A stretch of DNA of 64,000 bases from Candidatus Yanofskybacteria bacterium RIFCSPHIGHO2_01_FULL_41_21 (GTDB lineage Bacteria > Patescibacteriota > Minisyncoccia > 2-02-FULL-40-12 > GWA2-44-9), in contig MGJA01000003.1 in NCBI GenBank assembly GCA_001794025.1, positions 12,909-76,908 on the forward strand. The letters run 5' to 3'. Every line of letters begins with the position of its first letter. Position 1 is the stretch's first letter. The position numbers and the translations under genes were made by a program. Positions 33,063 through 63,310 of this stretch are shown here, piece by piece. Under the pieces are notes generated by a model. The model made no database searches. It saw nothing but the letters and a program-made list of their open reading frames with translations, and was not told the origin of the DNA.

Positions 33063-33133
33063 TGCGGGATAGTGTAATGGTAGCACGCATGACTCTGAAT
33101 CATGAAATCCAGGTCCGACCCCTGGTCCCGCAG
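33063..33133 (+). tRNA. tRNA-Gln (anticodon CUG)
   Basis: Acceptor TGCGGGA/TCCCGCA, U8, D-stem GTGT/GCAC, anticodon loop CTCTGAA, T-stem CCAGG/CCTGG. Confidence 0.75.
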
Positions 33134-33137
33134 CTAC

Positions 33138-33150
33138 GTTGAGATAGGTT
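33138..33150 (+). repeat. 13-bp direct repeat GTTGAGATAGGTT (copy 1), 4 nt after tRNA-Gln
   Basis: Identical copy at 35197-35209; related CCAGCCAAGGTTGGAG at 33976-33992. Confidence 0.7.
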
Positions 33151-33187: not shown

Positions 33188-33529
33188 ATGGAGAATATAA
33201 ATGTATGGCTAGTTATTTTGGGAGTCAGTTTAGCTTGGGGATTATTACATCATAAGGCAGGATATTATGCAGATATGAATAAACATAATGAGGCCTTTAA
33301 ATTTTTGGAATTTTGGCGTTGTTGTCTTAACTACTTTATAGCATTAGTTGTCGCATATTACTTTGTTTCAATAAGATGGGGGTATATTAATCAGGGGGGT
33401 AATCTTTATATAGGAGATTTTATCTTGGGAACCATTTTTCTTATTGGTATTTTCGGTTGGCTACCTTATTTTATTAAAAATATTACTGAGGGGATAAGTG
33501 CAATTTTCACTAAATTATTTACTAAATAG
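33188..33529 (+). CDS. Hypothetical small membrane protein
   Basis: 3 TM helices; first gene of the accessory array. Confidence 0.5.
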   Translation: MENINVWLVILGVSLAWGLLHHKAGYYADMNKHNEAFKFLEFWRCCLNYFIALVVAYYFVSIRWGYINQGGNLYIGDFILGTIFLIGIFGWLPYFIKNITEGISAIFTKLFTK

Positions 33530-33543
33530 ACCCACTACAAACC

Positions 33544-33960
33544 ATGATGACACCAAATGAAGCAGAAAAAATTATAAACAATTACGGAGCGGCATTAGGC
33601 GTCGGCACAAATGGTACTGCTCGTCTGATCTCTTTGCTCCCAGCTTCCAAAGCAAAGATTAGGTATGCTTTTTATGTTTACATTGCTGAGCTGGTAAAAA
33701 ACAGTCAACTTACTAAGGAGATAGGTAATAATCTAGTTGGTGCTTATATAGGATTAAGATCATTTATTGATGACAAAAAGGCTGATAAGTTTAATAAAAT
33801 TCACAGACAAATAGAAGAAGAAGTAAAGACAAAAAATAATTCAGATATCGACACAGAGGAAAAGAAAGAATATATGGATTTTATTAAAGAAGTGTATGGA
33901 ATCATGGCCGATATGGCCGAAATTAATGACTATATACGAGAGTGCCAGGAAGATATATAA
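33544..33960 (+). CDS. Hypothetical protein (138 aa)
   Basis: ORF 14 nt after the previous gene. No motif recognised. Confidence 0.45.
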   Translation: MMTPNEAEKIINNYGAALGVGTNGTARLISLLPASKAKIRYAFYVYIAELVKNSQLTKEIGNNLVGAYIGLRSFIDDKKADKFNKIHRQIEEEVKTKNNSDIDTEEKKEYMDFIKEVYGIMADMAEINDYIRECQEDI

Positions 33961-34098
33961 ATAACTAGTCCAAGGTGTCCAGCCAAGGTTGGAGGTATCG
34001 TGGATGACCAGAAAGCGAGATTTTGCTACAATTTTTACAACGAGTATAATGACCTAATCTAATTGATAAAGAACTTGATGGTTTATTGAAATAAAACT

Positions 34099-35166
34099 AT
34101 GGCACTAATAATTTCACAAAAAGGTAAAAGAACTCAAAAGATAGACAAGTCTGATTTTGAAAAGGAAGGAAACCTTCAGAGCTATATCCATGAAAATCCG
34201 GAATCTATTCCGGTGTATGAGATAGAAGAAAGCAAGCGGCTTTTTGTCGTAGCAAGGGAGTTTAAAACCGAATCAGGTCCGATTGATGCTTTAGCTATAG
34301 ATAAAGATGGCGATATTTATGTCGTTGAAACCAAGCTATATAAGAATCCGGATAAGCGAACCGTAGTGGCGCAGGCACTTGATTATGGTGCATCTCTTTG
34401 GCGTCATAGCGATTATAGTGAATTTATAAAGCTAATTAACGAAGAGATAAATAAAAGATTTAAAATCAGTTTTGAGGAAAAAGTTAGAAATTTCTTTGAT
34501 ATAGATGAAGAACAGACAGGGGCATTATTAGAAGCGATCAGAACGAACCTTCAACAAGGAAATATTAAATTTGTAATTTTAATGGATGACGTTAGCGACC
34601 GGCTAAAAGATCTGATTGTCTATATCAATCAAAACAGCCAGTTTGATATTTATGCAGTTCAGATGGAATATTACAAGTTTGAAAGTTATGAAATAATGAT
34701 CCCCAAATTATTCGGTGTTGAAGTTAAAAAAAGCATGACGAGCAACTCCGCTGGCAGTCCGAGGAGAAAGTGGGATGAGCAAGGTTTTTTTGAAGAAGTA
34801 AAGAAAGTGTTTTCAAAATCCGATTTTGAGTTAATTTTAAAGTTCTACACTTTTTCCAAAGAGTCAGCCGATGAAATTCATTGGGGTACTGGTGTTAACC
34901 AAAGTTCTTTTTCTGCTGGGTTTAATAAGTTAGGGAATAGGCCCTTGTTCGTTCTCCTTTCTGACGGAAGAATGAAAATTTCAACCGAATACCCAAAACG
35001 AGGAGCAACTAAAGAGCAAATTTCCAATCTAGATCATCTTAATTTAGAGCTTAAGAAAATAGGATTGGAAGTGAACCCAAAATCCGAGAGAACTGTTTTT
35101 ACTCTACCTGAGTGGTCATCTAAACTAGATGTTATGATAAAAACTATTAAGAAATCAATAGATTGA
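34099..35166 (+). CDS. NucS/DUF4263-superfamily PD-(D/E)XK nuclease-domain protein (nuclease domain N-terminal)
   Basis: GPIDALAIDKDGDIYVVETK...VVAQALDYGASLW matches the G-x-ID-x-LA-x-D...VV-E-x-K...Q-L-x-Y core of NucS-like nucleases. Confidence 0.55.
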   Translation: MALIISQKGKRTQKIDKSDFEKEGNLQSYIHENPESIPVYEIEESKRLFVVAREFKTESGPIDALAIDKDGDIYVVETKLYKNPDKRTVVAQALDYGASLWRHSDYSEFIKLINEEINKRFKISFEEKVRNFFDIDEEQTGALLEAIRTNLQQGNIKFVILMDDVSDRLKDLIVYINQNSQFDIYAVQMEYYKFESYEIMIPKLFGVEVKKSMTSNSAGSPRRKWDEQGFFEEVKKVFSKSDFELILKFYTFSKESADEIHWGTGVNQSSFSAGFNKLGNRPLFVLLSDGRMKISTEYPKRGATKEQISNLDHLNLELKKIGLEVNPKSERTVFTLPEWSSKLDVMIKTIKKSID

Positions 35167-35196
35167 ATTCTAACATCGAACCAAATTACCAGCCAA

Positions 35197-35209
35197 GTTG
35201 AGATAGGTT
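35197..35209 (+). repeat. 13-bp direct repeat GTTGAGATAGGTT (copy 2)
   Basis: Identical to 33138-33150. Downstream CCCGAGACGCATCGTGGCCTT resembles 33151-33170. Confidence 0.7.
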
Positions 35210-35285
35210 ATTTTGCCCGAGACGCATCGTGGCCTTACTTCTATTCCTATCCCGTAAAAGCATATCGACTGAGTGCCGTATTCAA

Positions 35286-35320
35286 GAACATAAAACCGCC
35301 AATATAGCGGTTTTATGTTC
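35286..35320. terminator. Strong palindromic hairpin (14-bp arms) in a long AT-rich leader
   Basis: GAACATAAAACCGC CAATATA GCGGTTTTATGTTC. Confidence 0.5.
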
Positions 35321-35580
35321 TTTCGCGGATGAGTGAAACAGTCCTTGTGGATAAGTTTGATCAAGGGGCAAAAGTTAGTAGTATATAGTTACTATTTTAA
35401 AAATATTTTTTGTAAAAATTATGAAAGAAAACTCTTATAAAATAAGGGTTACTTCAATTAGGATGTAATACATCTTTACATAAAAACCGATAATTACCGA
35501 TATAAACAGATGAAACTCTTGATATTATATACCATTAAGTTATAATTGTTTTTATGAGTATAGATTATTAACTAAAAATT

Positions 35581-35964
35581 ATGAGCAACACCGACCCACT
35601 TCAAAAATTAGTTGTCAGTGAATCGCAGGCAGTTGATAGACAGGCCCTTGCAGATCTATTGTCACCATATCTATCAATAAATAAAGAAACTCAGTCTTTT
35701 GATTTTTCGGGAGCCTTCCTGGAATTGACAAGTGCGGATAGGATTCTAATTCTTCTTTCTGCCGCGAAAGCCAGGAATCTGATCCTTGGTTTAGATGAAA
35801 AAATTAGACCATTGGAAATAATAAAGATGGAGATTGCGCCTGAGGGGACTATTAAAAATACGCTGAAGAAGCTTCTCGCATCTAAAGACATCAAGGCAGA
35901 CGAGGGTAAATATTACCTGCCGAACTATAAGCTCTCCCAAGTTATAGCCCGATTCAAAAAATAA
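35581..35964 (+). CDS. Hypothetical protein A (127 aa) of a tightly linked three-gene unit
   Basis: Preceded by a 414-bp AT-rich leader. 10-nt gap to the next gene. Confidence 0.5.
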   Translation: MSNTDPLQKLVVSESQAVDRQALADLLSPYLSINKETQSFDFSGAFLELTSADRILILLSAAKARNLILGLDEKIRPLEIIKMEIAPEGTIKNTLKKLLASKDIKADEGKYYLPNYKLSQVIARFKK

Positions 35965-35974
35965 TTAAAATAAT

Positions 35975-36388
35975 ATGGACAACACTAATTTTGAGCAGAA
36001 AATATTGGAGCGTATGTCGGCACTTGAACAGAGGGTTGATAAACTTGAGAATGGCGGAAGTAAAACCGTTAATGCTCATGGTGTCGCAAAAAAGTTATCA
36101 ATCAAAGAGTTTATTATGACTAAAAAACTTGATGACGATGTTAAACGTACTTTGGCGATCGCGTACTTTATTGAACACATGGAAAATACAAAGCCATTTA
36201 ATACCGAAGATCTTAAAAAGGCCTTTCGTCTCGCAAAGATTTCGTTGCCATTGAATATTAATGACAAGATTAACATGAATATTCGTGTCGGCAGGATAAT
36301 GGAAGCAGAAGAAAAAAAGGATTCCAAGAAGGCCTGGGAACTTACAGCAACTGGGGAGACTTTCGTGGAGAACGAACTTAATAAATAG
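35975..36388 (+). CDS. Hypothetical protein B (137 aa; coiled-coil N-terminus)
   Basis: ILERMSALEQRVDKLENG heptad pattern. Confidence 0.5.
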   Translation: MDNTNFEQKILERMSALEQRVDKLENGGSKTVNAHGVAKKLSIKEFIMTKKLDDDVKRTLAIAYFIEHMENTKPFNTEDLKKAFRLAKISLPLNINDKINMNIRVGRIMEAEEKKDSKKAWELTATGETFVENELNK

Positions 36389-36400
36389 TTGATATTCCAA

Positions 36401-37069
36401 ATGAAAGAAAAAAGGTCTGCAAAAAATTCTACTGATGCCCTAATTATTCTTTGGGAAGAAGGATTCTTTAAGAAATATCAGAACTTTAAAAGTGTCTGTG
36501 AAAATCTATCGAGCCGAGGTAATAATTTTCCCTACTCAAGTTTAGCTATAGCTCTTAGGCAAGCTAAATTTTTAACGCGGAGAGGTAAACGGGGATTTTT
36601 TGAGTATATTCAAAAACACAAAGCTGATTCGGAAGTAATAAAAGCCATTGCTCCAGGTTTATTCTCTGATGAGTTATTAAAATCGCTTCAAAAAGATTTC
36701 AAGATAGAGCTAGAAGATCTCAAATACAATTATGGTAAGAGTGGCAACTGCACAGCATTTTTATTACGGAAGATTTTAGAAAAATTAATTTATATTACTT
36801 TTGCAAAGCACAATCTCATTTCAAAACTAGAAGATAAATCTCAAACTGGTCGGTTTGTTGGACTTGAAGCGATGATTAGATTAGCTTCTTCAGAAAAAAT
36901 AGAGGGAGTTCCTTTTCTCATATCAAAAACTGCAAATGAAATTCAGAGCATTAAATTTTTAGGGGACACATCTGCCCACAATCATTTGGTGGAGGTCGAT
37001 ATGAAAACTATAGTCCCACAAATGCCCTACATAATTACTGCGTATAAGGAATTAGTTAAAAAATTATAA
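36401..37069 (+). CDS. Hypothetical protein C (~222 aa)
   Basis: ATG 12 nt after the gene B stop (TTG at 36389 also in frame). No motif recognised. Confidence 0.5.
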   Translation: MKEKRSAKNSTDALIILWEEGFFKKYQNFKSVCENLSSRGNNFPYSSLAIALRQAKFLTRRGKRGFFEYIQKHKADSEVIKAIAPGLFSDELLKSLQKDFKIELEDLKYNYGKSGNCTAFLLRKILEKLIYITFAKHNLISKLEDKSQTGRFVGLEAMIRLASSEKIEGVPFLISKTANEIQSIKFLGDTSAHNHLVEVDMKTIVPQMPYIITAYKELVKKL

Positions 37070-37298
37070 TATGAACAAACCACAAAAATTGTTTGTAGAA
37101 CGCTTATTTAGATGGTAGGTATGGTGTGAAAAAATCACATACTACGAAACCACTCGTGACGACTGGTACTCAGGCAAATGCGATTAAGAAAGCAGAGAAT
37201 GTGGATCCTAATGAGTTGTTAGTTGAGTGTGTTAGAGATACAAAAGTTGGAGGGCGAGATGGGTGGTGTAAACCCTAATAAACTGCTAATATTTCATT

Positions 37299-38483
37299 AT
37301 GGAAAAAGAAAAAATACTCCGACAGTTCCAAGACTTCTTGGTTAGCTATAATGCCGTCCAAAAAGACGAGATCTGGCAAAAGCAGTCCAATATCTTTAGG
37401 ACTTTTTGGAACCAAAGAGTCCTAAATGATCAGGTCAAAGAACTTGATGATTTTGAAATCGATAACGTAATTCGACTGATCGACTATAATTCTAAGGGCA
37501 AAAAAGCTGGCGATGAGGCGGTTGCCAAGGTTATGATCCCGCAAGGTGTTTGGCGAAAAATGTTCAATCAGTTTAAAACGGATAAGAAACTCGCCCAACT
37601 TGTCGATCAAATAATGGGAACATTTGAGCAAGATAAACGCATAAAGCTAATTGACGAACTTTATAAATATAACGAACCGTACCGCAACAGTTTAACTGGC
37701 CAAAGTGGTAATGCTGTTAATTCTTTTATATTTTTATGGGCACCATTAAAAAACATCAGTATCATTTCTTTAAAAGATAGGCAGAAATTAATTCAATTCC
37801 TAGATGTCCAGAATGGACCAAACTTCGAGAATGATTCTACTGCCAAGAAGATTGTTGAATCTAACGATTCTCTGGCCTCAAGCTTTGCTAAAATATTTGG
37901 CAGTCAATATTCTCCTAGAACAATATGCTCCTTCTTTTACAGCCCTCTGATTAAGAATGAATGGCGGTCTGAGGATATTGGAGAAGAAACTGTCCCTTGG
38001 GGTGGTTGGAAAAAATCACCAGAAGAAGATTTTGCACCAATTATAGCCGAATCATCTATGCTGGGCGACCCAGCCCTTTTCTATATGGAAAGTCAGCTCG
38101 AAGATTTTCTGATAGAAAATTGGGACAAAACAGAACTTGGTCAGAAGTACGATTTAATTGAAGAAGAAGGCGAAGTAGTTAGCCAACAATATAGAACAGG
38201 AGTGGGTCTAATAGATATTCTCGCCCGAGACAAGAAAACCAAACAACTTGTTGTTATTGAATTAAAAAAGAATCAAACAAGTGATGATACTGTGGGTCAA
38301 CTCGCTAGATATATGGGATGGCTCGAAGAAAATAAAACTAATGGTAAGCTAACCAAGGGTATTATCATAGCCGCCCAATATGATCAAAGATTGTACTATG
38401 CTCTAAAGAAAATGCAGGACGCAGAGGTTTATTTATATCGAGTGGATTTTAAACTTACAGAGTTCAAAGATGGCTCAAAATAA
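37299..38483 (+). CDS. NucS/Shedu(DUF4263)-like protein with C-terminal PD-(D/E)XK nuclease domain
   Basis: C-terminus GVGLIDILARDKKTKQLVVIELKKNQTSDDTVGQLARYMGWL matches the NucS-like/DUF4263 catalytic core. The N-terminal ~300 aa are unassigned. Confidence 0.55.
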   Translation: MEKEKILRQFQDFLVSYNAVQKDEIWQKQSNIFRTFWNQRVLNDQVKELDDFEIDNVIRLIDYNSKGKKAGDEAVAKVMIPQGVWRKMFNQFKTDKKLAQLVDQIMGTFEQDKRIKLIDELYKYNEPYRNSLTGQSGNAVNSFIFLWAPLKNISIISLKDRQKLIQFLDVQNGPNFENDSTAKKIVESNDSLASSFAKIFGSQYSPRTICSFFYSPLIKNEWRSEDIGEETVPWGGWKKSPEEDFAPIIAESSMLGDPALFYMESQLEDFLIENWDKTELGQKYDLIEEEGEVVSQQYRTGVGLIDILARDKKTKQLVVIELKKNQTSDDTVGQLARYMGWLEENKTNGKLTKGIIIAAQYDQRLYYALKKMQDAEVYLYRVDFKLTEFKDGSK

Positions 38484-38600
38484 GCGGATTAGCTAAAAAA
38501 GTGACACTCTCAAGTAGTGTCCATTTTATCCCTTTTTAGCCTGCCTGAGACGCTTCGTTTGTGATAAGATTTGGATAATTAACCTTTCAATAAAAACTCA

Positions 38601-38963
38601 ATGAAAAAGATTTACTACAATAAACTTATACGCGATAAGATACCCGAAAAGATTAAACGGAACGGCGGGGACTACAAGATAAATAAGCTTAATCAGAAGC
38701 TTTTTGAGGTAGAACTCTTAAAAAAAGTCGGAGAAGAGGCGAGTGGGCTTTTATCTTCTAAGACAAAAGAAGAAGTTACCTCTGAACTTGCCGATATTAT
38801 TGCTGTGATAGAGGAGATAAAAAAATTAAAACATATTACATCAAAACAAATTTCAGAAGCATTGAAAATAAATTTTGATAAAAAGGGAGGATTCAATAAG
38901 AAACTATTTTTAGTATGGTCTTCCGATACCGGATATAAGACCAATGAAAAGAGGAACAAATAG
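38601..38963 (+). CDS. MazG-like / PRA-PH-like nucleoside triphosphate pyrophosphohydrolase
   Basis: YNKLIRDKIPEKI...EEASGLL...ELADIIAVIEEI pattern typical of small all-alpha NTP-PPase proteins. Confidence 0.5.
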   Translation: MKKIYYNKLIRDKIPEKIKRNGGDYKINKLNQKLFEVELLKKVGEEASGLLSSKTKEEVTSELADIIAVIEEIKKLKHITSKQISEALKINFDKKGGFNKKLFLVWSSDTGYKTNEKRNK

Positions 38964-39066
38964 TTTAGAGATTTTAACCGAATCAAGGAGAGAGAAAAAG
39001 GGGTCAGGTCCCTTTTCTTCTGCTCGAGGCCCATCGTTATGATAAGATAAATAATAAGTTAATTTT

Positions 39067-39462
39067 ATGAGTGAACAAATATCAACGCCGGAAAAAGTAT
39101 CTAGAGAGCAAGCTCTCGCTATGTATAGAAAATTTGTAGAGCGTGGAATTACCAGTCCCGATGCTTTAGATTTGAATGATCCCGAAGTTATTGAAGCGAA
39201 TAAACTATTTGAAAAATGGGACGCGCAAGAGAGTGTAAAAGGAGATTTTGAAAGGCATAATTTTGAAAAGACCAAGTTTTATGTTGATGCTGGATTTACC
39301 GACTCTAATTATCTTGGGGATGTTCTAGGATGGCTCTTTCAAGATGCGGGAGATATAGAAAAGCAACCAGATAATCCCACTCGAGTTCAATTGCGAAGCG
39401 ACTACGCAAAAGAGATAAAAAAGATCAGGGACTTATTGGGCTTGGCCACCGGTGGGAATTGA
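39067..39462 (+). CDS. Hypothetical protein (131 aa)
   Basis: ORF preceded by intergenic modules M1/M2. No motif recognised. Confidence 0.45.
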   Translation: MSEQISTPEKVSREQALAMYRKFVERGITSPDALDLNDPEVIEANKLFEKWDAQESVKGDFERHNFEKTKFYVDAGFTDSNYLGDVLGWLFQDAGDIEKQPDNPTRVQLRSDYAKEIKKIRDLLGLATGGN

Positions 39463-39492
39463 GCCGACAGTCGGCTCAATTCCCACCATTTG
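39455..39492. repeat. 38-bp perfect palindrome GGTGGGAATTGAGCCGACAGTCGGCTCAATTCCCACC (copy 1); identical copy at 42567-42603
   Basis: Exact duplicate 3.1 kb away. Followed in both cases by TTTGAGCCGAT... and CCGAGACACGTTGCTA modules. Confidence 0.8.
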
Positions 39493-39577
39493 AGCCGATG
39501 CTGTTATTGATCAAGGTGGTGTTCAGCTAAGGTTAGACGGGTTATTCCGCCTGAGACACGTTGCTAGTTTAAAATTT

Positions 39578-40798
39578 ATGAAAAATATTCCATTTACAGA
39601 AAAACAAATTAGAGATTTTGTAAAAGATCATCCAACGCCATTTTATGTTTATGATGAAGATGGAATTCGCCATTCTGCCCGGAAACTTATCGATAGTTTT
39701 TCGTGGAATTCTAGTTTTAAAGAATTTTTTGCGGTTAAGGCAACTCCAAATCCAAGTATCTTAACTATTCTAAAAGAAGAAGGTTGTGGCGCTGATTGTA
39801 GCTCGTTTCCAGAATTGCTTCTTGCTGAACGTGTAGGAATACGAGGAGAAGATATTATGTTTACCTCAAATGATACGCCAGCTGAAGAATTCAGAAAAGC
39901 TAGTGAACTTGGTGCGATCATTAATCTAGATGATCTTTCCCATCTTGATTATTTGGAAAAAGAAGTTGGCTTACCAGAATTAATCAGTTTTCGCTATAAT
40001 CCCGGATCTTTAACGGGTAATGTTATTATCGGGACACCAAAAGAGGCAAAATTTGGGATTACAAAGGAACAATTACTTGAAGCATACCGGATCGCAAAAG
40101 AAAAAGGAGTGAAACGTTTTGGTCTCCATACGATGATTGCTTCCAATGAGCTTAATCCACAACATTTTATAAATACAGCGGAGATGATTTTCGATATTGC
40201 CTTAGAACTGAAAGAAAAAATTGGAATCAAAGTGGAGTTTATTAACCTGGGTGGTGGGTTTGGAATTCCTTACAAACCTGAGCAAGAAGAGCTTGATCTT
40301 TCCGTTGTGTCGGAGGGAGTCCAGAAACTCTATGAAAAAATGGATATGGCACCAATAAGGTTATTTTTTGAGAGTGGTCGATACATTACTGGTCCGCATG
40401 GTTATCTTATTTCCCGTGTACGCCATATAAAGAACACCTACAAAAAATACATTGGCCTTGATGCTTCAATGGCAGATCTTATGAGACCTGGAATGTACGG
40501 TGCATATCATCACATCACCGTTCTCGGTAAAGAAAAAATGCCATACGATGTAACCTGTGATGTGACAGGTTCATTGTGTGAAAATAATGACAAGTTTGCT
40601 GTCGACCGCAAGTTACCTGAAATAAACACTGGAGACATAGTCATCATTTATGATGTCGGGGCCCATGGCCACTCGATGGGGTTTAATTATAACGGTAAAC
40701 TTAGATCTTCAGAATTTCTACTCGGATCAAATGGTAAAATGAAAATAATACGTAGAGCAGAAACTATAAATGATTATTTTGCAACCTTAAATTTTTAG
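39578..40798 (+). CDS. Fold-type III PLP-dependent decarboxylase (DAP / ornithine / carboxynorspermidine decarboxylase family)
   Basis: TPFYVYDE ... FFAVKATPNPSILTIL ... GGGFGIPY motifs of the Orn/DAP/Arg decarboxylase family. Confidence 0.65.
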   Translation: MKNIPFTEKQIRDFVKDHPTPFYVYDEDGIRHSARKLIDSFSWNSSFKEFFAVKATPNPSILTILKEEGCGADCSSFPELLLAERVGIRGEDIMFTSNDTPAEEFRKASELGAIINLDDLSHLDYLEKEVGLPELISFRYNPGSLTGNVIIGTPKEAKFGITKEQLLEAYRIAKEKGVKRFGLHTMIASNELNPQHFINTAEMIFDIALELKEKIGIKVEFINLGGGFGIPYKPEQEELDLSVVSEGVQKLYEKMDMAPIRLFFESGRYITGPHGYLISRVRHIKNTYKKYIGLDASMADLMRPGMYGAYHHITVLGKEKMPYDVTCDVTGSLCENNDKFAVDRKLPEINTGDIVIIYDVGAHGHSMGFNYNGKLRSSEFLLGSNGKMKIIRRAETINDYFATLNF

Positions 40799-40902
40799 CT
40801 CCGTCCGAAACGTGTAGTTTATGATAAGATTTGGATAGCTACTAATTGCCTTGCGGGGCTTGACCGTTTGACGGTTCCAGCTCGAAGTGATTCAGTATAA
40901 TT

Positions 40903-41463
40903 GTGTCATCCATGAATTCTTCTATTTATCAGATTAAAATTACTCTCAAAGACTCAAAACCACTAATTTGGCGAAGATTTTTAGTTTTTTCAGATATTTC
41001 TTTATATAAGTTGCACAAAGCCATCCAAATTATTATGGGATGGGAGGATTATCATCTGCATCATTTTGAAGTAGGAAGAAATTTTTATGGAATTCCAGAC
41101 CCAGATTTTGATGATGGTACTATAAATGGAAAAGGGATCCTATTGAAAGATATTGTTCCGAAAATTCCGTCTCAGTTTTTGTATGAGTATGATTTCGGAG
41201 ATAGTTGGGACCATATTATATTGGTAGAGAAAGTTATGAATTCAGAGTTGAAAATGAAGCATCCAATTTGTATTGACGGTAAAAGAGCTTGCCCTCCAGA
41301 GGATGTTGGAGGTATTTGGGGGTACCAGCATTTTTTAAAGGTTCTTGGAAACCCTAAACACAAAGAATATCGGGATTTAAAAGAGTGGATAGGTGGCAAA
41401 TTTAACCCAGAACACTTTAATAAAGAATTAGTTAATGAAATTTTAAAAAAGATTAAGTATTAG
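40903..41463 (+). CDS. pRiA4b ORF-3-like family protein (PF07929-like)
   Basis: LYEYDFGDSWDHIILVEK and 'IKITLKDSKPLIWRRFLV' motifs. Confidence 0.55.
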   Translation: MSSMNSSIYQIKITLKDSKPLIWRRFLVFSDISLYKLHKAIQIIMGWEDYHLHHFEVGRNFYGIPDPDFDDGTINGKGILLKDIVPKIPSQFLYEYDFGDSWDHIILVEKVMNSELKMKHPICIDGKRACPPEDVGGIWGYQHFLKVLGNPKHKEYRDLKEWIGGKFNPEHFNKELVNEILKKIKY

Positions 41464-41477
41464 TGTTAAAATATAGT

Positions 41478-41521
41478 CATAACCGTGAAAATACAACAAT
41501 TATCAGCGTTTTTCACGGTTA
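41478..41521. promoter_or_regulatory. 15-bp-arm inverted repeat (CATAACCGTGAAAAA ... TTTTTCACGGTTATG) followed by a TTGACA -35-like hexamer upstream of fic
   Basis: Perfect inverted repeat with an ~18-nt spacer. TTGACA at 41524-41529. Confidence 0.4.
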
Positions 41522-41560
41522 TGTTGACAGAGTCGTGAAAAAAGAGTAAGATTACAGTAT

Positions 41561-42448
41561 ATGGTAAAAGTACTCAACGCCTTCAATAAAGTGAGTTTTC
41601 TTCGTGAGAGATACTATAAAGCATCAATAGGTAAGGATGCGCTTATTACGCTTATATCTGAAACTGAAGTTGTCGACCAGGTTTACAACTCTAATGCTAT
41701 TGAGAATAGCACTCTCACTCTTGAAGAAACCGAAAAGATACTTCTTCAAATTGATTTAGATAGATTCATCTCCGAACGAGAAATTTTTGAAGCAAAAAAT
41801 TTGGCGCGAGTTGTATCGTACATAGACAAAAAAGCTAAGGAACAAGAACTTACTCTTGAGGTGATTTTATCACTTCATAAAATGTTGATTTCAAATATTC
41901 GCGACGATGTTGCGGGGAGGTTTAGAAAGGATGATGAACATGTTCGTGTGGGGAATCATATTGCTCCTAATCCAAAAGAAGTAATGAGTCGTCTTGAAAA
42001 AATGCTGACTGAGTACAATGCAACGAGTCATGAAAACATAATTAAACGTATTGCCAGATTACATCTCGCTTTTGAACACACCCATCCATTTGTCGATGGT
42101 AATGGACGTATTGGACGTGTTATTAATAACTATTTACTGATTAGAGAAGGATTTGTGCCAATAAACATAAAATTTATTGATAGAAAAAAATATTATGAAG
42201 CTTTTAAAGAATTTGATGAAAAGGGCGTCGTTACTATTATGGAAGAAATAGTAGGCAGGGCGCTTACCAATAGCTATCATAAAAGATTGGCCTATTTAGA
42301 AGGTAAAAAAATTATCACTCTCATTGATTATGCAAAAAATAACAAACTTTCTCATTCTAATTTGATCAATAAAGCTAATCGACAAACCATCGAAGCTTTT
42401 TTAGAAAAGAATATTTGGAAAATCGGAGTGGATGATGTAATTAAATAA
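41561..42448 (+). CDS. Fic/Doc family protein (adenylyltransferase-like)
   Basis: Canonical Fic motif HPFVDGNGRIGR. Confidence 0.85.
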   Translation: MVKVLNAFNKVSFLRERYYKASIGKDALITLISETEVVDQVYNSNAIENSTLTLEETEKILLQIDLDRFISEREIFEAKNLARVVSYIDKKAKEQELTLEVILSLHKMLISNIRDDVAGRFRKDDEHVRVGNHIAPNPKEVMSRLEKMLTEYNATSHENIIKRIARLHLAFEHTHPFVDGNGRIGRVINNYLLIREGFVPINIKFIDRKKYYEAFKEFDEKGVVTIMEEIVGRALTNSYHKRLAYLEGKKIITLIDYAKNNKLSHSNLINKANRQTIEAFLEKNIWKIGVDDVIK

Positions 42449-42566
42449 TAAATAAAAATAACTTATAAATTCTGCTCGAGGCCTGTCATTTATGATAAGA
42501 TTTGAATAGTTAACCCTTCGATAAAAACTCAGGGTAATAAACACTCTGTAGGGCCTGTCGCTGGTG

Positions 42567-42603
42567 GGAATTGAGCCGACAGTCGGCTCAATTCCCACCA
42601 TTT
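42567..42603. repeat. 38-bp perfect palindrome (copy 2)
   Basis: Identical to 39455-39492. Confidence 0.8.
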
Positions 42604-42646
42604 GAGCCGATACCGTTCTGGTCTGGTCCGAGACACGTTGCTAAAT

Positions 42647-43255
42647 ATGGATTTAAAATCAACATATAATTATATAGCTGAAGATTGGACCAAAGACCAT
42701 GAGAACGATACTTGGTGGATTGCTGGTACAGACAAATTTGCTTCGTATTTAAAGCAAGGCAGGAGTGTCTTAGATGTTGGTTGTGCCAGTGGAATGAAAT
42801 CGGAATATCTTGCTAAGAAAGGTTTTGTTGTAACGGGAGTTGATTTCTCAGGCAAGATGATTGAGTTAGCACAAAAAAGAATGCCCTCCCGATTCTTTTT
42901 TGTGAGAGATATAAACGAACCCTTAAATTTAAAATCAAAATTTGATGGAATATTTGCTCAAGCTGTTTTACTTCATGTTCCAAAAAATAATATCAAAAAA
43001 GTTCTAGGCAATTTGCTTGAACTATTAAAATCGAATGGGTATATTTACATCGCTGTTAAGAAAGTAAACGAGGGACAGATTGAAGAACAAGTTATAAAAG
43101 AAAACGATTATGGCTATGAGTATGAGAGGTTTTTCAGCTTTTATACTTTAGATGAGATGAGAGGATATCTTGAAGAATTTGGATTAAAGATTGTATATAG
43201 CGACGTCATTTCAACTGGTAAAACTGAGTGGATCCAAGTTATTGCTCAAAAATAA
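42647..43255 (+). CDS. Class I SAM-dependent methyltransferase
   Basis: Motif I LDVGCASGMKSEYLAKKG. The ATG follows the CCGAGACACGTTGCTAAAT module, as at 39578. Confidence 0.7.
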   Translation: MDLKSTYNYIAEDWTKDHENDTWWIAGTDKFASYLKQGRSVLDVGCASGMKSEYLAKKGFVVTGVDFSGKMIELAQKRMPSRFFFVRDINEPLNLKSKFDGIFAQAVLLHVPKNNIKKVLGNLLELLKSNGYIYIAVKKVNEGQIEEQVIKENDYGYEYERFFSFYTLDEMRGYLEEFGLKIVYSDVISTGKTEWIQVIAQK

Positions 43256-58666: not shown

Positions 58667-61600
58667 ATGTCTAATCCTTTAAACGGAACTCGTCCGGTTT
58701 TTGTAAAAACCGTGTCAGTTCTCACTTCGGTAGCGACCATGTTGTCGTTATCGGGAGCGGCCTACCTTGCGCCTTTAACAGCGGTGGCGGCTGTTCCGTC
58801 CGATTATGGCCTTACAGAAGGCAACACGATTAGCGCTTCAGGAACAAATGATCCTGATGTCTATATCGTAAACGAACTTGGATACAAGAGATTGTTCTTG
58901 AATCCAGTTATCTTTGGTTTCTATGGTCACCTTGGCGGTTTCGCTAATGTGAAGAGTGTTACTGCAGCTGCCCGCGACGCTTTCCCGACTTCTGGTTTGT
59001 TCCGCAATTGCGAAACGAATGCTCAACAGGTCTGGGCCGTTGAAGTAACTGCTGAAGATACCGGTGTCTTCCATAAAGTTGTAATGTCAGGCGACCAAGC
59101 TGTTGCCGAAGATGCCAACTTTTTCAAGAAGGTGTTCTGTATCAATAACAACGAACAGAATTGGTATCCAAAAAGTTCAGTTGATTACACTTCATTAAGT
59201 CAGGTTCCGGTTTACGCTCGTGTCCCGGGTGCAACCCCAACCCCAAGCTATGGAGCGTTGTCAGTCGGTTTAGCATCATCTAATCCTGCTTCCGGCACGA
59301 TTGTTGATGGTCAAGCCAGATATAACTTGGCCGAGTTTACATTTACTGGTGGCGGAACCGTTAATTCTGTTAAATTAAAAAGAATTGGTGTTTCTGCTGA
59401 TGCTTCATTAACAAATGTTTATTTGTATGATGGCACCAGGAGATTAACTGATTCAGCCACTGTTTCCAGTAGTGAAATATACTTCAACGATGCTGGTGGT
59501 TTATTCACTGTAGCCGGCGCCAAGACCATATCAGTTATGGCTGATGTTGACGGCTCTTCAGGTGAAACAATCGGTGTCCAGCTTATTGCTTGGAACGGAA
59601 ACACTGTAAGTATTTCCGGCAACTTGCATAATATTGCTACCGCCACATTGGCGACAGTTGCTTTAGCTGCGCTTACTGCCCCAGCCGATGCTACCAACGA
59701 TGGTGTTGATGAAACCGGTGTTGCTCAAGAACCGGCAAATGATGTTGTCGTTTGGAATGATACCGTTACTGTTGGTCAGAGGTATGTTTGGTTGAAATCG
59801 GTTCAACTCAGAGTTGTTGGTTCAGCAGGAGTTGATGATGTTCAAAACTTCCGACTTATGGTTGATGGTGTCTATGTTGGCTCTGCTATCGCTCGACGTG
59901 ATGCTGTTAGTGGATACATAGTATTTGACTTGACCGGCGCCCCAGTTAAATTAGAAACCGGCGGTCGTATTATAAAAGTGGTCGCAGATGTTGTCGGTGG
60001 TTCCAGTAAGGATTTCCATCTCTCCTTGAGACAGAAGTCCGATATTTGGGCCGTTGATTCCCAGTACTCTGCTGCCGTATTGGCAACAGGTACATTCCCA
60101 ATTGGAGATGTTGACAACGAATTAGAAATTTCAGCCGGTACTTTGACCGTTACCAAGACGACTGATTCGCCTTCCGGTGATGTTGTTAAAGATGCTTCCG
60201 GTGTTGTCTTAGCTCGATTTGAGCTCAAGGCCGCCGGTGAAAGGATGAAGATTGAAAACCTTCGCATCAACAATACCAGCGATGTTGCATCATTATCATT
60301 TAGAAATGCTGCCTTATTCGCTAATGATGGTATGGGTGGTGGTATGGTTCAGGTTGGTTCAACCACAACTCTTTGGGACGATGAGACCGTAACCGCGTCA
60401 AACAGTACCAAGTATGCGGAAGTTTCCTTGGGATCTTCATTGATTGTTGATCCGGGCAAACCACGTCTATTGGAAATTAGAGCAGATATCTTTGATTCTA
60501 CTGGTACCAACAACGTTGCGGCTAACCAAACATTTGCCGCGCAAATCGCAGTCGGTTCGTCCAACGTCCAACGCTTGACGACACTGGACTACGTTAATGG
60601 TCCAAGTTCTGTTAAGACCGGTACGACATTGACGATTAAGACAGGTTCATTATCAGCCGGTAAATACACCGGTTATGCTAACCAGTCGGTTGTTGATCCG
60701 AAGAATAATGTCAAAGTTGGTCACTTCACAATAACGGCTGCTTCTTCTGAAGACGTTAATATCAGCTCAGTTGATATAATGCCTCAGTTGGTAAGTGGTA
60801 CCAGTTTTGATGGTGGCGAACTTGATGATTCGTATGTCGTAATCAAGAATGATCTTGGTGCGACGATTTACACTTCACCGATCAAGGCCGCTATGTCCGA
60901 GAGTGCCAGTTCAAGCTTCTCAACGAACTTCACATTGCCCAAGAACAAGACCTATCAAGTTGAGGTTTGGGCAAATGTTGATTCCGGTATTACCGCGACT
61001 GACGCAGTCCGACTCGTATTCAGCGCCACTGGAACAACGGCTGGTTCAAGTACATCCAGCACTTCAGATGTCGTAGTTGGTCAGACGATAACTTCTCAAA
61101 CAGGTTCATTGTCTAAAGCCAATGGTTCCTTGCCGGCTGCCCGCTTGATAAATGGTGGTACTACAGTAACTGGTTACCAATTCACTTTGACACCAACCTA
61201 TGATGACTTCTATCTTGACGAGGTCTATGTTGACCTTTCAAGTACAACAGCATCATCTACAGGTGCAGTGTCAAATCTTATCTTGAAGAATGGTGGTACA
61301 ACCCTTGCTTCAGCGACAGTAAGTTCAACCACCGGCTCGGCTTCATTCACTGGTCTTAATTTGTTGATGAGCCAAGCAGGCGGAACTCAGACCTTTACTG
61401 TTGATGTAGTGTTGGCTAATGTCGGTGTCGGAGCAAACGATACCGCCGGTGTTGTCACCGTCCGCTTGGATGGCTTGAAATACCGAGATAGTGCCGGATC
61501 AATCACCACTGAAAATGGTTTTGCTCCTGGAACTTATGGCGGTAATGCTAACAACGTGGTCAAAGGTTATCCGACCTTTACTAATGCCTCGTTACCTACA

Positions 61601-62110
61601 ACCACTTTAAGCGCCGGTTCAATGGTCTTGTTTAAGACCGTCGTCAGTGCCACGGGTGGCCAAGTAGCATGGAATAACATTACCTTCACGGTGGCATCAA
61701 ATTCTGGTCTTATCACCATCGCCACCAGTTCTTATCAGATTTGGGAGAATGGTGTTGATATCACTGCCGATTCCGTCGGTGCTACGGCCAGCGACAGTTA
61801 CAGTGGTAGTAACGACCGAATAGAGTTCAGCTTCGCTACAGAGCGTGCTATCTCTGTTGGTAGTCCGTCTACCATTGAATTGAGAGCGACCGTTGGTGGC
61901 ACTATTTCAGCCGGTAACTCGGTTAGTGTCCAGGTTGCCAATCCAAAAGGAACAACTGTATCCGTTGATGATTCTACAAATCAACAGGATTCCGGTGCTT
62001 CCTTCGTCTGGTCTGATCAATCATCTCCATCTCATGCCACTACTACGGATGACTGGTTCACTGATGGTCTAGTCAAGACATTGGCCGCTACTCAAACGGT
62101 TACGAAGTAA
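58667..62110 (+). CDS. Large secreted cell-surface protein (1147 aa; beta-rich repeats) with N-terminal conserved ~150-aa domain
   Basis: Signal/TM at the N-terminus. S/T/G/V-rich repetitive beta-strand composition. The N-terminal domain is shared with the C-terminus of the next protein. Confidence 0.6.
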   Translation: MSNPLNGTRPVFVKTVSVLTSVATMLSLSGAAYLAPLTAVAAVPSDYGLTEGNTISASGTNDPDVYIVNELGYKRLFLNPVIFGFYGHLGGFANVKSVTAAARDAFPTSGLFRNCETNAQQVWAVEVTAEDTGVFHKVVMSGDQAVAEDANFFKKVFCINNNEQNWYPKSSVDYTSLSQVPVYARVPGATPTPSYGALSVGLASSNPASGTIVDGQARYNLAEFTFTGGGTVNSVKLKRIGVSADASLTNVYLYDGTRRLTDSATVSSSEIYFNDAGGLFTVAGAKTISVMADVDGSSGETIGVQLIAWNGNTVSISGNLHNIATATLATVALAALTAPADATNDGVDETGVAQEPANDVVVWNDTVTVGQRYVWLKSVQLRVVGSAGVDDVQNFRLMVDGVYVGSAIARRDAVSGYIVFDLTGAPVKLETGGRIIKVVADVVGGSSKDFHLSLRQKSDIWAVDSQYSAAVLATGTFPIGDVDNELEISAGTLTVTKTTDSPSGDVVKDASGVVLARFELKAAGERMKIENLRINNTSDVASLSFRNAALFANDGMGGGMVQVGSTTTLWDDETVTASNSTKYAEVSLGSSLIVDPGKPRLLEIRADIFDSTGTNNVAANQTFAAQIAVGSSNVQRLTTLDYVNGPSSVKTGTTLTIKTGSLSAGKYTGYANQSVVDPKNNVKVGHFTITAASSEDVNISSVDIMPQLVSGTSFDGGELDDSYVVIKNDLGATIYTSPIKAAMSESASSSFSTNFTLPKNKTYQVEVWANVDSGITATDAVRLVFSATGTTAGSSTSSTSDVVVGQTITSQTGSLSKANGSLPAARLINGGTTVTGYQFTLTPTYDDFYLDEVYVDLSSTTASSTGAVSNLILKNGGTTLASATVSSTTGSASFTGLNLLMSQAGGTQTFTVDVVLANVGVGANDTAGVVTVRLDGLKYRDSAGSITTENGFAPGTYGGNANNVVKGYPTFTNASLPTTTLSAGSMVLFKTVVSATGGQVAWNNITFTVASNSGLITIATSSYQIWENGVDITADSVGATASDSYSGSNDRIEFSFATERAISVGSPSTIELRATVGGTISAGNSVSVQVANPKGTTVSVDDSTNQQDSGASFVWSDQSSPSHATTTDDWFTDGLVKTLAATQTVTK

Positions 62111-62233: not shown

Positions 62234-63310
62234 ATGTATAAATACACGATTATAGTTATATTGTTGATCAGCTCTCTATCTGGATTGTTTTGGCGTGCAT
62301 CTGCCGAAGAAGGACCAACACTAACGGCTACTTTGGATGGTCAAACACCAATAACGAAAAGTATACCAGCCGATTCCCAATATGTTGATGTGGCCCGAAT
62401 CACTTTAACCGCCTCCGTCGGCGACGTGTATCTGAAAGGTATTTATTTAGGGACAGATATAGCAGGTGGTTTGAGTAATTTTACCAACATTTATATATAC
62501 GACACGTACGATTCTGCTTTGGTTGGCACTTATCCTAATCTAAGTGAAAATCCTAATTTGGTAGAGTTTGGATCAGCAATTGTTATAGGAAATGGTAATA
62601 CTCCTAAGACGTATTTAGTGAAGGCGAGCTTATCATCTTCGGCTACCGGCAATGTGCGGGTTGGTTTCAGTGGATTCACTTTTTCAACTCTGGCTACACC
62701 AACTTTGGTTGGTGTTCCAATCTATGGCAATGTAATGACTTTACCGGGAACCGTGGTTACCCCAACACCCACGCCTTCACCAGATACTCCGGTGAGCACG
62801 GCAACCCCAACACCAACTACTACACCCCAACCAACAGCTAGTCCATCTTTGATGGTCACTCCGACCTCACTTGGTTTTACTAGCTTATCTGCTCTGGGTT
62901 TAAGTGAAGGTAATACTATTAGTGCTATTAATTCAGATGACCCTGATATTTATATTGTTAATGATTGGGGATACAAGAGATTATTTCTAAATCCCGCTAT
63001 TTTCAATTTCTACGGTCATTTAGGTGGGTTTGCCAAAGTTAAAAATATCCCATCATCAACAAAGGCCGTCTTAGTAACTTCGGGTTTATTCAGAAATTGT
63101 GAGACAGATGATTCTAAGGTTTATGGTCTAGAGACAACCGGTGAAGATACAGGCATGTTGCATTGGATCAATACTTCGGGTACTCAAGCCGTGGCTGATA
63201 ATCCCGATTTCTTTAAAAAGGTATTCTGTGTCAACACTAAAGAATTTAACTGGTATTCCAAAGGTTCGGATTATACTTCAGTTAGTCAGGTGCCGGACTA
63301 TTCTCGGTAG
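62234..63310 (+). CDS. Secreted surface protein (358 aa) ending in the same ~150-aa conserved domain
   Basis: Signal peptide, T/P-rich linker TPTPTPSPDTPVSTATPTPTTTPQPT, and C-terminal EGNTISA...YKRLFLNP...GLFRNCET...FFKKVFC domain. Confidence 0.6.
   Translation: MYKYTIIVILLISSLSGLFWRASAEEGPTLTATLDGQTPITKSIPADSQYVDVARITLTASVGDVYLKGIYLGTDIAGGLSNFTNIYIYDTYDSALVGTYPNLSENPNLVEFGSAIVIGNGNTPKTYLVKASLSSSATGNVRVGFSGFTFSTLATPTLVGVPIYGNVMTLPGTVVTPTPTPSPDTPVSTATPTPTTTPQPTASPSLMVTPTSLGFTSLSALGLSEGNTISAINSDDPDIYIVNDWGYKRLFLNPAIFNFYGHLGGFAKVKNIPSSTKAVLVTSGLFRNCETDDSKVYGLETTGEDTGMLHWINTSGTQAVADNPDFFKKVFCVNTKEFNWYSKGSDYTSVSQVPDYSR

Follow-up and report, generated by a model that had tools for sequence, protein, structure and literature searches.

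Two genes that lie 2.1 kb apart in a metagenome-assembled genome of Candidatus Yanofskybacteria (candidate phyla radiation (CPR)/Patescibacteria) both encode NucS-like PD-(D/E)xK nucleases, with the catalytic domain first in one protein and last in the other. The DNA analyzed, referred to here as the window, is a stretch of 64,000 nucleotides (nt) of contig MGJA01000003.1 (positions 12,909 to 76,908). Open reading frame 1 (ORF1; 34099..35166, 355 amino acids (aa), identical to GenBank protein A2735_00275) has an N-terminal nuclease followed by a basic, fast-evolving C-terminal domain. ORF2 (37299..38483, 394 aa, identical to A2735_00295) has a helical N-domain, an acidic disordered linker and a C-terminal nuclease. 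We think it probable that the two are independent mobile single-gene nuclease modules, ORF2 serving as a type IV-like restriction enzyme and ORF1 as an exclusion or defense nuclease. Because the nuclease of ORF2 also stands behind MrcB_N domains, and its N-domain also stands on McrB and other effectors, we regard the two halves of ORF2 as interchangeable parts of methyltransferase-less restriction enzymes. Coordinates are those of the window, and the genes and domains given below lie on the + strand.

One nuclease fold in two domain orders

The nuclease domain of ORF2 (aa 258-394, 38070..38483) was delimited by Pfam NucS_C, an alignment with NucS, invariant family columns and Foldseek. It passes the NucS_C cut-off of 24 with 49.9 bits (E 3.9e-13, aa 282-362); a second match, to YhcG_C at 33.6 bits (cut-off 32.5), overlaps this stronger one, and Pfam gave no match to DUF1016_N. 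Residues D306, E321, K323, and Q334 are invariant when 56 homologs are aligned, and line up with D160, E174, K176, and Q187 of P. abyssi NucS; their codons were verified at 38214-38216, 38259-38261, 38265-38267, and 38298-38300. The AlphaFold2 model (mean predicted local distance difference test (pLDDT) score 80.9) found EndoMS 5gke (E 1.3e-4) and NucS 2vld (E 2.9e-4) as its top PDB matches in Foldseek. Ahead of the nuclease are the N-domain (aa 1-225, 37299..37973), modeled as all-helical, and a linker (aa 226-257, 37974..38069) that is acidic, varies in length and has pLDDT values below 50.

The core of ORF1 (aa ~15-215, 34141..34743; delimited by invariant columns, the NucS alignment and Foldseek) includes a helical insert at aa 86-152 and stays below the NucS_C threshold (18.4 bits, cut-off 24, E 0.0023). 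Its residues D63, E77, K79, and Q92 (codons verified at 34285-34287, 34327-34329, 34333-34335, and 34372-34374) are invariant in a 56-sequence family alignment and correspond to the same four residues of P. abyssi NucS, and NucS 2vld is the top PDB match of its model (mean pLDDT 76.1; probability 1.00, E 0.011). The C-terminal domain (aa 225-355, 34771..35163; pLDDT >90) is poorly conserved except for a WGTG motif, and matched no family or solved structure. Among PADLOC candidate families, ORF1 aa 9-237 match positions 11-217 of the 358-position PDC-S11 model PDLC04916 (E 6.6e-19), and four further PDC-S11 models match as well. ORF1 shares with PDC-S11 its nuclease half, together with single-gene contexts among restriction-modification (R-M) systems and mobile elements, while its C-terminal 120 aa fall outside the coverage of the model.

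The ORF1 and ORF2 family profiles align with each other across the nuclease core (hhalign E 1.1e-4). The two proteins thus present, well beyond chance, one nuclease fold in two domain orders. In both, the nuclease domain is acidic (isoelectric point (pI) 5.0) and the non-catalytic domain basic (pI 9.0 in ORF2 and 9.3 in ORF1). An earlier reading of the sequence alone, hereafter the original prediction, had named these two ORFs as NucS-like PD-(D/E)xK proteins, placing the catalytic core at the N-terminus of ORF1 and at the C-terminus of ORF2. The coordinates, the peptides it quoted and the alignment of the catalytic D, E, and K residues with those of NucS all bear this out.

A separate structural likeness of ORF1 came from BFVD. 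Gp54 of Bacillus phage G, an uncharacterized protein of 296 aa, matches nearly all of the ORF1 model (287 columns, E 5e-8). A likeness to T4 MotA-family proteins was weak and non-significant (E about 0.3).

The ORF2 nuclease also occurs behind a methylcytosine-binding domain

ORF2 matches model PDLC04824 of the PADLOC candidate family PDC-S02 at 1.4e-47, the match being limited to positions 165-306 of 308, the nuclease half of that model. Likewise, certain proteins of ~305 aa (loci L035-L081 in our numbering of related loci) have a C-terminal half that shares 59-68% identity with ORF2 aa 250-390. We found them in Pelagibacter, Prochlorococcus, SAR86, SAR324, Parcubacteria, Actinobacteria, and several archaea. 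All ten of these relatives that were scanned carry MrcB_N (PF12102; 32-48 bits, cut-off 25) followed by NucS_C, whereas ORF2 lacks MrcB_N. MrcB_N, also called DUF3578, is the part of E. coli McrB that binds 5-methylcytosine (PMC11090510). Such fusions of MrcB_N with a NucS-like nuclease, for example those at L043, L044, L068, and L081, come from streamlined marine genomes and from archaea, whereas ORF2 is a protein of a groundwater CPR bacterium.

The N-domain of ORF2 precedes many restriction effectors

The N-domain had no match in our local Pfam copy or in the PDB. With aa 1-230 as the query, an exhaustive phmmer search returned 238 cluster representatives (50% identity) from bacteria and archaea, in proteins of about 100-976 aa. 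The domain is nearly always N-terminal in these proteins, with the effector after it. Among 78 representatives, the Pfam partners were AAA_5 (19), NucS_C (14), HNH (8), HNH_2 (5), NOV_C (5), and HNH_5 (2), with rarer cases of MrcB_N (2), GmrSD_N (2), Mrr_N/Mrr_cat (1), FokI_cleav_dom (1), and EVE (1). With a shared profile, the fusion partners match the structures of E. coli and T. gammatolerans McrB (about 1e-19 to 5e-20), and McrC (PF10117) lies directly downstream of two of the AAA_5 proteins. The N-domain of one such McrB is 41.6% identical to that of ORF2 over 250 aa (E 1.6e-55). Residues W26, W37, W85, N125, R161, and W222 are nearly invariant across all of these architectures, and the PADLOC models matched by N-domain proteins were PDC-S02, REase_II, mREase_IV, HNH, and PD-T4-1.

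A tentative extension of these observations, which we hold to be possible though not the likelier case, is that the N-domain is a foreign-DNA reader of a class not described before, probably one that recognizes a modified base, and that it has been plugged into at least seven effector types, with ORF2 as the minimal form. The seven are McrB-McrC, Mrr, GmrSD_N-containing, HNH, FokI-type, NOV_C, and NucS-like effectors.

Three further observations concern N-domain proteins. The McrB-type proteins P0260, P0274, and P0291 share an additional middle domain of ~145 aa (aa 425-568 of P0260), which is probably the newer Pfam family DUF8426 (PF28530). This name probably does not apply to the N-domain itself; by BLAST, two carriers of DUF8426 share a separate middle region that is absent from an N-domain protein without it. 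Within ORF2, a stretch modeled at low confidence (aa 40-80, 37416-37535) contains an EF-hand-like loop with the consensus ILDRNGKGNTxxxE, its DxNxKG loop falling at aa 62-73 (37482-37517). We rejected an EF-hand assignment for this stretch, as its matches to calmodulin were not significant (E 0.1-0.8).

Homologs lie among restriction and mobile genes, and the two families do not travel together

Full-length members of the ORF2 family (38-70% identity) occur in CPR bacteria, Nitrospinota, Acidobacteriota, Bacillota, Bacteroidetes, Gammaproteobacteria, Woesearchaeota, and Micrarchaeota. This spread over many bacterial phyla and DPANN archaea indicates frequent horizontal transfer. Around 29 full-length ORF2-family loci, the neighboring genes encode ResIII (six), N6_N4_Mtase (four), N6_Mtase, SWI2_SNF2, and Eco57I (three each), SduA_C (two), and AbiTii. 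Homologs that are 80-89% identical stand in entirely different contexts. On the Acinetobacter pittii plasmid pAP2044-1 (L181, NZ_CP087717.1 270229-272321), a gene for a 311-aa "endonuclease NucS domain-containing protein" and an Abi family gene interrupt a type I R-M operon, lying between its hsdS and hsdR genes; the nuclease domain of this protein is 47% identical to that of ORF2.

Across 29 ORF1-family loci, the neighbors were N6_N4_Mtase (11), serine recombinase (six), small-terminase-like (five), SduA_C (two), and RVT (two) genes, and Schlafen/AlbA_2 and ResIII genes were also found nearby. Close homologs of ORF1 (88-89% identity) occur in two settings. In one, the gene adjoins a ParB-N6_N4 methyltransferase, terminase-like genes of both the small and the large type and a serine recombinase, with a type III R-M system next in line; in the other, its neighbors are RadC, Fic and type I R-M genes. 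A prophage-like module with a serine recombinase, a large terminase-like gene, a small terminase-like HTH_Tnp_1_2 gene, and a ParB-N6_N4 methyltransferase recurs in CPR-type contigs (L146, L150, L137, L110, L111, L102, L112, and L082-L084). Beside it, often between recombinase and terminase, is a cargo slot in which the ORF1-family gene sits on the opposite strand. The ORF1 family was present at nine IMG/VR loci, and among the 2.9 million viral contigs members of either family are rare.

To ask how the two genes relate, we drew on 81 ORF2-family loci from the genome collection and 84 ORF1-family loci. Not one of these 165 loci, each fetched through a homolog of ORF1 or ORF2, has the other nuclease within its flanks. 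We also compared 13 genes of the window (33188-43255, an accessory island and the block after it) by tblastn with the 81 ORF2-family loci and with 85 others, of which 84 belong to the ORF1 family. No homolog of a gene in the 33188-39462 island that holds both nucleases was found, and the sole matches, both weak, were to two downstream genes (41561 and 42602). All-against-all clustering of about 150 neighbor proteins per family gave no conserved partner gene for ORF2, with no cluster present in more than three of its 29 loci, and only mobile-element genes recurred next to ORF1. The original prediction had made a point of finding two such nucleases in one locus. As the families were never seen together elsewhere, we reject a functional ORF1-ORF2 pair; judged from these comparisons, their co-location is incidental and the pairing carries no special meaning.

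A proposed mechanism

We propose that ORF1 and ORF2 are horizontally mobile nuclease modules that came by chance to lie in one island downstream of a tRNA-Gln gene. ORF2 would most likely be a single-chain type IV-like restriction endonuclease, acting on DNA that is marked as foreign by a modification or in some other way, and having no methyltransferase partner. Its basic all-helical N-domain (aa 1-225) would recognize the target, and the acidic flexible linker would couple it to the NucS-type domain (D306/E321/K323), the presumed DNA cutter. As in type IV enzymes, ORF2 combines a nuclease with a separate, putative specificity domain, one that type IV enzymes also carry, and it has no cognate methyltransferase: there is no DNA methyltransferase gene in the island or adjoining ORF2, and no partner recurs among the 29 loci. 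The analysis shows the fold and catalytic residues, the exclusion from Shedu and repair NucS, the swapping of both ORF2 halves, the genomic contexts and the independence of the two families; we infer that the non-catalytic domains bind DNA, that modification is required and that the genes act in defense. In ORF1, the catalytic domain (D63/E77/K79) comes first and the basic, diverging C-terminal domain probably sets the target. We read ORF1 as a cargo nuclease of prophage-like integrative elements and R-M islands, probably with a role in exclusion or defense.

Several observations weigh against this proposal. A nuclease module that is ~60-68% identical across domains of life would be unusual for a gene caught up in an arms race. 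In three proteins the N-domain is accompanied by MrcB_N, EVE, or Mrr_N, each of them already known to read or bind DNA, so that it may not be the DNA reader and may instead be an accessory, regulatory or protein-sensing module. The well-known readers of modified bases (PUA/EVE/SRA and MrcB_N) are beta-rich, whereas the N-domain of ORF2 is all-helical. When the one PDC-S02 representative was tried heterologously in E. coli B, it was absent from the four candidate systems that gave protection against T7, T5, or T4 (PMC12881386); the phages used may have lacked the relevant mark. For ORF1, the case for defense comes only from genomic context, with which a role in the biology of the carrier element is equally compatible. 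Lastly, the island was present in every one of the 22 contigs whose ftsX is identical, and is therefore fixed at this depth. The original prediction had noted that single-gene nuclease defenses of this kind are often found in variable islands. An accessory stretch of low G+C content, with relatives among R-M, Shedu, Abi, and mobile genes, was indeed found, but no strain-level variability was seen among these 22 contigs.

Alternative explanations

The original prediction had likened ORF2, by its domain arrangement and size, to the Shedu (DUF4263) defense proteins. ORF2 might be one of them, or at least work like one, as an oligomeric nuclease kept in check by autoinhibition, with an N-domain that detects free ends or some other structural feature of the invading DNA. 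The resemblance in layout is real for ORF2, a single gene of near 400 aa in a defense-island-like context, in which a PD-(D/E)xK domain at the C-terminus follows a non-catalytic region; the same layout is common to many nuclease families, and it is absent from ORF1. The family assignment itself did not hold up. Neither protein matched PF14082 (DUF4263/SduA_C) or the PADLOC Shedu models at E<=0.1, hhalign gave the ORF2 family a probability of 0.75% against a true SduA (L001), and SduA was absent from the top 50 fold matches of ORF2, where EndoMS and NucS rank first. In the fold ranking of ORF1, SduA 8ps5 came 33rd (E 0.59). True SduA_C genes (408-409 aa) do lie 1-2 kb from ORF2 homologs at L001 (10334-11563; homolog 70% identical) and L086 (6747-7973; 80%), and because they are separate neighboring genes, we conclude that the two families are distinct though they share islands. 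In addition, the N-domain is partnered with McrB, Mrr, GmrSD, HNH, and FokI modules, not with Shedu nucleases. We reject Shedu membership on these profile, hhalign and fold tests, give a Shedu or Shedu-like mechanism a low probability, and advise that the label not be propagated. Still less credible, to the point of being very improbable, is that one or both proteins are housekeeping NucS/EndoMS mismatch or repair endonucleases, even though the nearest solved structures are those of NucS, as is the only Pfam domain. The NCBIfam NucS equivalogs, with cut-offs of 216 and 252 bits, gave 55.0 and 36.6 bits for ORF2 and 23.3 and 17 for ORF1, and these full-length models align only at ORF2 aa 282-371 and ORF1 aa 21-82, with nothing matched outside the nuclease core. 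The N-terminus of ORF2 is helical and unrelated, homologs of 38-89% identity are patchily scattered over unrelated phyla, domains and contexts, with no conserved synteny, and the island is one of low G+C content and orphan genes. A housekeeping NucS ortholog with conserved synteny, the outcome that the original prediction had set against its own claim, is thus rejected too. Of the three nuclease families suggested for profile searches, NucS was the one recovered, by ORF2 and below threshold by ORF1, while DUF4263 and Cap4 were not. No PADLOC model for Cap4 or the cyclic oligonucleotide-based antiphage signaling system (CBASS) matched ORF1, ORF2, or their neighbors, and we reject a Cap4/CBASS effector; the PADLOC matches obtained were to PDC-S02, PDC-S11, PDC-S18, and, weakly, Cas4.

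Two other explanations keep the nuclease fold and change its purpose. The genes, and mainly ORF1, could serve the mobile elements that carry them, in packaging, recombination, degradation of host DNA or competition between elements. The recurrence of ORF1 homologs beside or between serine recombinase, large and small terminase-like and ParB-methyltransferase genes points this way, as do the nine IMG/VR loci and the structural match to phage G Gp54. In the layouts that we read, however, the ORF1-family gene usually lies on the strand opposite to terminase and recombinase, like independently expressed cargo, and at other loci it neighbors type I or III R-M systems, RadC and Fic, with no phage genes nearby. 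The window has no recombinase or terminase either, and neither family is common in the viral contigs. We consider this explanation unlikely, if less so than the others weighed here. ORF2 could also be a sequence-specific type II-like endonuclease with an N-domain that reads sequence and a protective methyltransferase encoded elsewhere. The fusion of N-domain to FokI and the PADLOC REase_II matches would fit type IIS or LlaJI-like logic, and methyltransferases are frequent within three genes of the homologs. Yet no methyltransferase family recurs beside the gene, the limit of three of 29 loci per cluster applies to these genes as to all neighbors, and none is adjacent in the window. The sister architecture moreover carries MrcB_N, a methylcytosine reader, and the commonest partner of the N-domain is McrB followed by McrC. 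A type II-like role for ORF2 accordingly seems to us improbable, about as much so as a Shedu-like one.

Comparison with known systems

The type IV-like reading of ORF2 can be set beside several known systems. By sequence, its nearest relative is the MrcB_N plus NucS-like family behind PADLOC PDC-S02. The nearest one to have been tested, and an experimental precedent for this reading, is END-Mag, which joins an iEndoIII sensor to a NucS-like PD-DExK nuclease and restricted phages whose G is modified (PMC12191111). The iEndoIII sensor is also found fused to a McrB-like GTPase (PMC12191111). With the MrcB_N fusions, ORF2 shares the NucS-type module, a two-module single-gene layout without a methyltransferase and R-M-rich surroundings; the reader is swapped in ORF2 for the all-helical domain of ~225 aa, itself a candidate reader. 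In McrBC, E. coli McrB joins the MrcB_N/DUF3578 reader to an AAA+ GTPase and McrC is the nuclease. The ORF2 N-domain fills the position of the specificity domain in McrC-linked McrB proteins, whereas ORF2 has neither GTPase motor nor McrC. As its nuclease is fused directly, with no motor, any cleavage would be independent of translocation. Shedu (SduA) resembles ORF2 as a single gene of ~400 aa with a C-terminal PD-(D/E)xK domain in defense islands, and differs in nuclease family; relative to Shedu, the domain order of ORF1 is reversed. NucS/EndoMS shares the catalytic fold and the D-E-K-Q residues with both ORFs and is the best structural match of both. Outside the core nothing matches, and ORF1 and ORF2 are mobile and patchily distributed.

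The lead worth keeping is ORF2 as a putative minimal type IV-like restriction nuclease, with an unannotated N-domain reused ahead of many restriction effectors. Reagents for mapping DNA modifications are drawn from modular type IV restriction enzymes, which also shape the entry of phages and plasmids. If the proposal for ORF2 is true, the gene marks a widespread specificity domain that is unannotated in our local Pfam copy and has no similar solved structure, and its minimal form of 394 aa would lend itself best to expression and testing. The gene also shows that single-gene nucleases of this sort are carried by CPR/Patescibacteria, small as the genomes of these bacteria are.

The island and its neighbors

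Both nucleases belong to an accessory island of nine genes (33188..39462) between a tRNA-Gln (CTG) gene (33063..33134), which forms the left edge of the low-G+C stretch, and a lysA-like decarboxylase gene. The G+C content of the island is 0.356, compared with 0.416 in the remainder of the window. Its seven non-nuclease genes comprise six hypothetical genes and one for a MazG-like nucleoside triphosphate pyrophosphatase of 120 aa (38601..38963), assigned from weak MazG-like matches. Six of the non-nuclease proteins were looked up, and all fall in tiny 90% clusters of 1-4 members. Three of the genes form a tightly packed orphan operon between ORF1 and ORF2 (127, 137, and 226 aa; 35581..37069). 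Like the other small genes of the island except that at 38601, they gave no significant match in Pfam, NCBIfam, PADLOC, or PHROG. The operon had no homolog in the 166 related loci (L001-L166) and is unlinked to either nuclease family elsewhere. The 414-nt gap upstream of it contains a perfect 16-bp hairpin (35284-35322).

Upstream of the island are lepA, ftsB, prfB, ftsE, ftsX, and the tRNA-Gln gene, and beyond it the lysA-like gene is followed by PRiA4_ORF3, Fic, and a methyltransferase of the small-molecule type. Searches by tblastn with the recombinase, terminase and ParB-methyltransferase proteins of related loci found no recombinase or terminase near the island, and we rejected an integrase/terminase element within the window on this basis.

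Repeated sequences in the window

A motif of the form TGCYYGAGRC-N~8-TTTRTGATAAGATWTGGATA stands upstream of the genes at 38601, 39067, 40903, and 42602 (copies at 38542-38581, 39021-39050, 40800-40841, and 42473-42512), and its core is also present at 35214 and 39548. The six matches to the core compare with 1.27 expected, and five of the six are on the + strand, between 35.2 and 42.5 kb. The sequence TGATAAGAT occurs five times (0.94 expected). The motif looks like a common promoter or operator of accessory genes.

CAGCYAAG(G)TTGAGAYAGGTT has only four copies in the window, over the 3′ end of the tRNA-Gln gene (33131-33150), 5′ of ORF1 (33980-34002), 24 nt past the ORF1 stop (35190-35209), and 5′ of the lysA-like gene (39524-39543). 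Three of the four regions can be aligned over ~60 nt. These copies could be scars around inserted modules, similar to attachment (att) sites, or they could be part of the promoter-linked motif.

Two copies of a 55-nt element, 96% identical (39451-39505 and 42563-42617), flank the lysA-PRiA4_ORF3-Fic block. The element holds a perfect palindrome of 18-19 bp (GGTGGGAATTGAGCCGAC-A-GTCGGCTCAATTCCCACC), for which the chance expectation is none, and may be terminator-like or similar to repetitive extragenic palindromic (REP) sequences. Farther downstream, a 729-aa protein from L085 begins with ~150 aa that are 57-61% identical to the translations of 58781-59239 and 62888-63307, which fall within ORFs of 1147 aa (58667-62110) and 358 aa (62234-63310), and this suggests a domain repeated in these large neighboring proteins.

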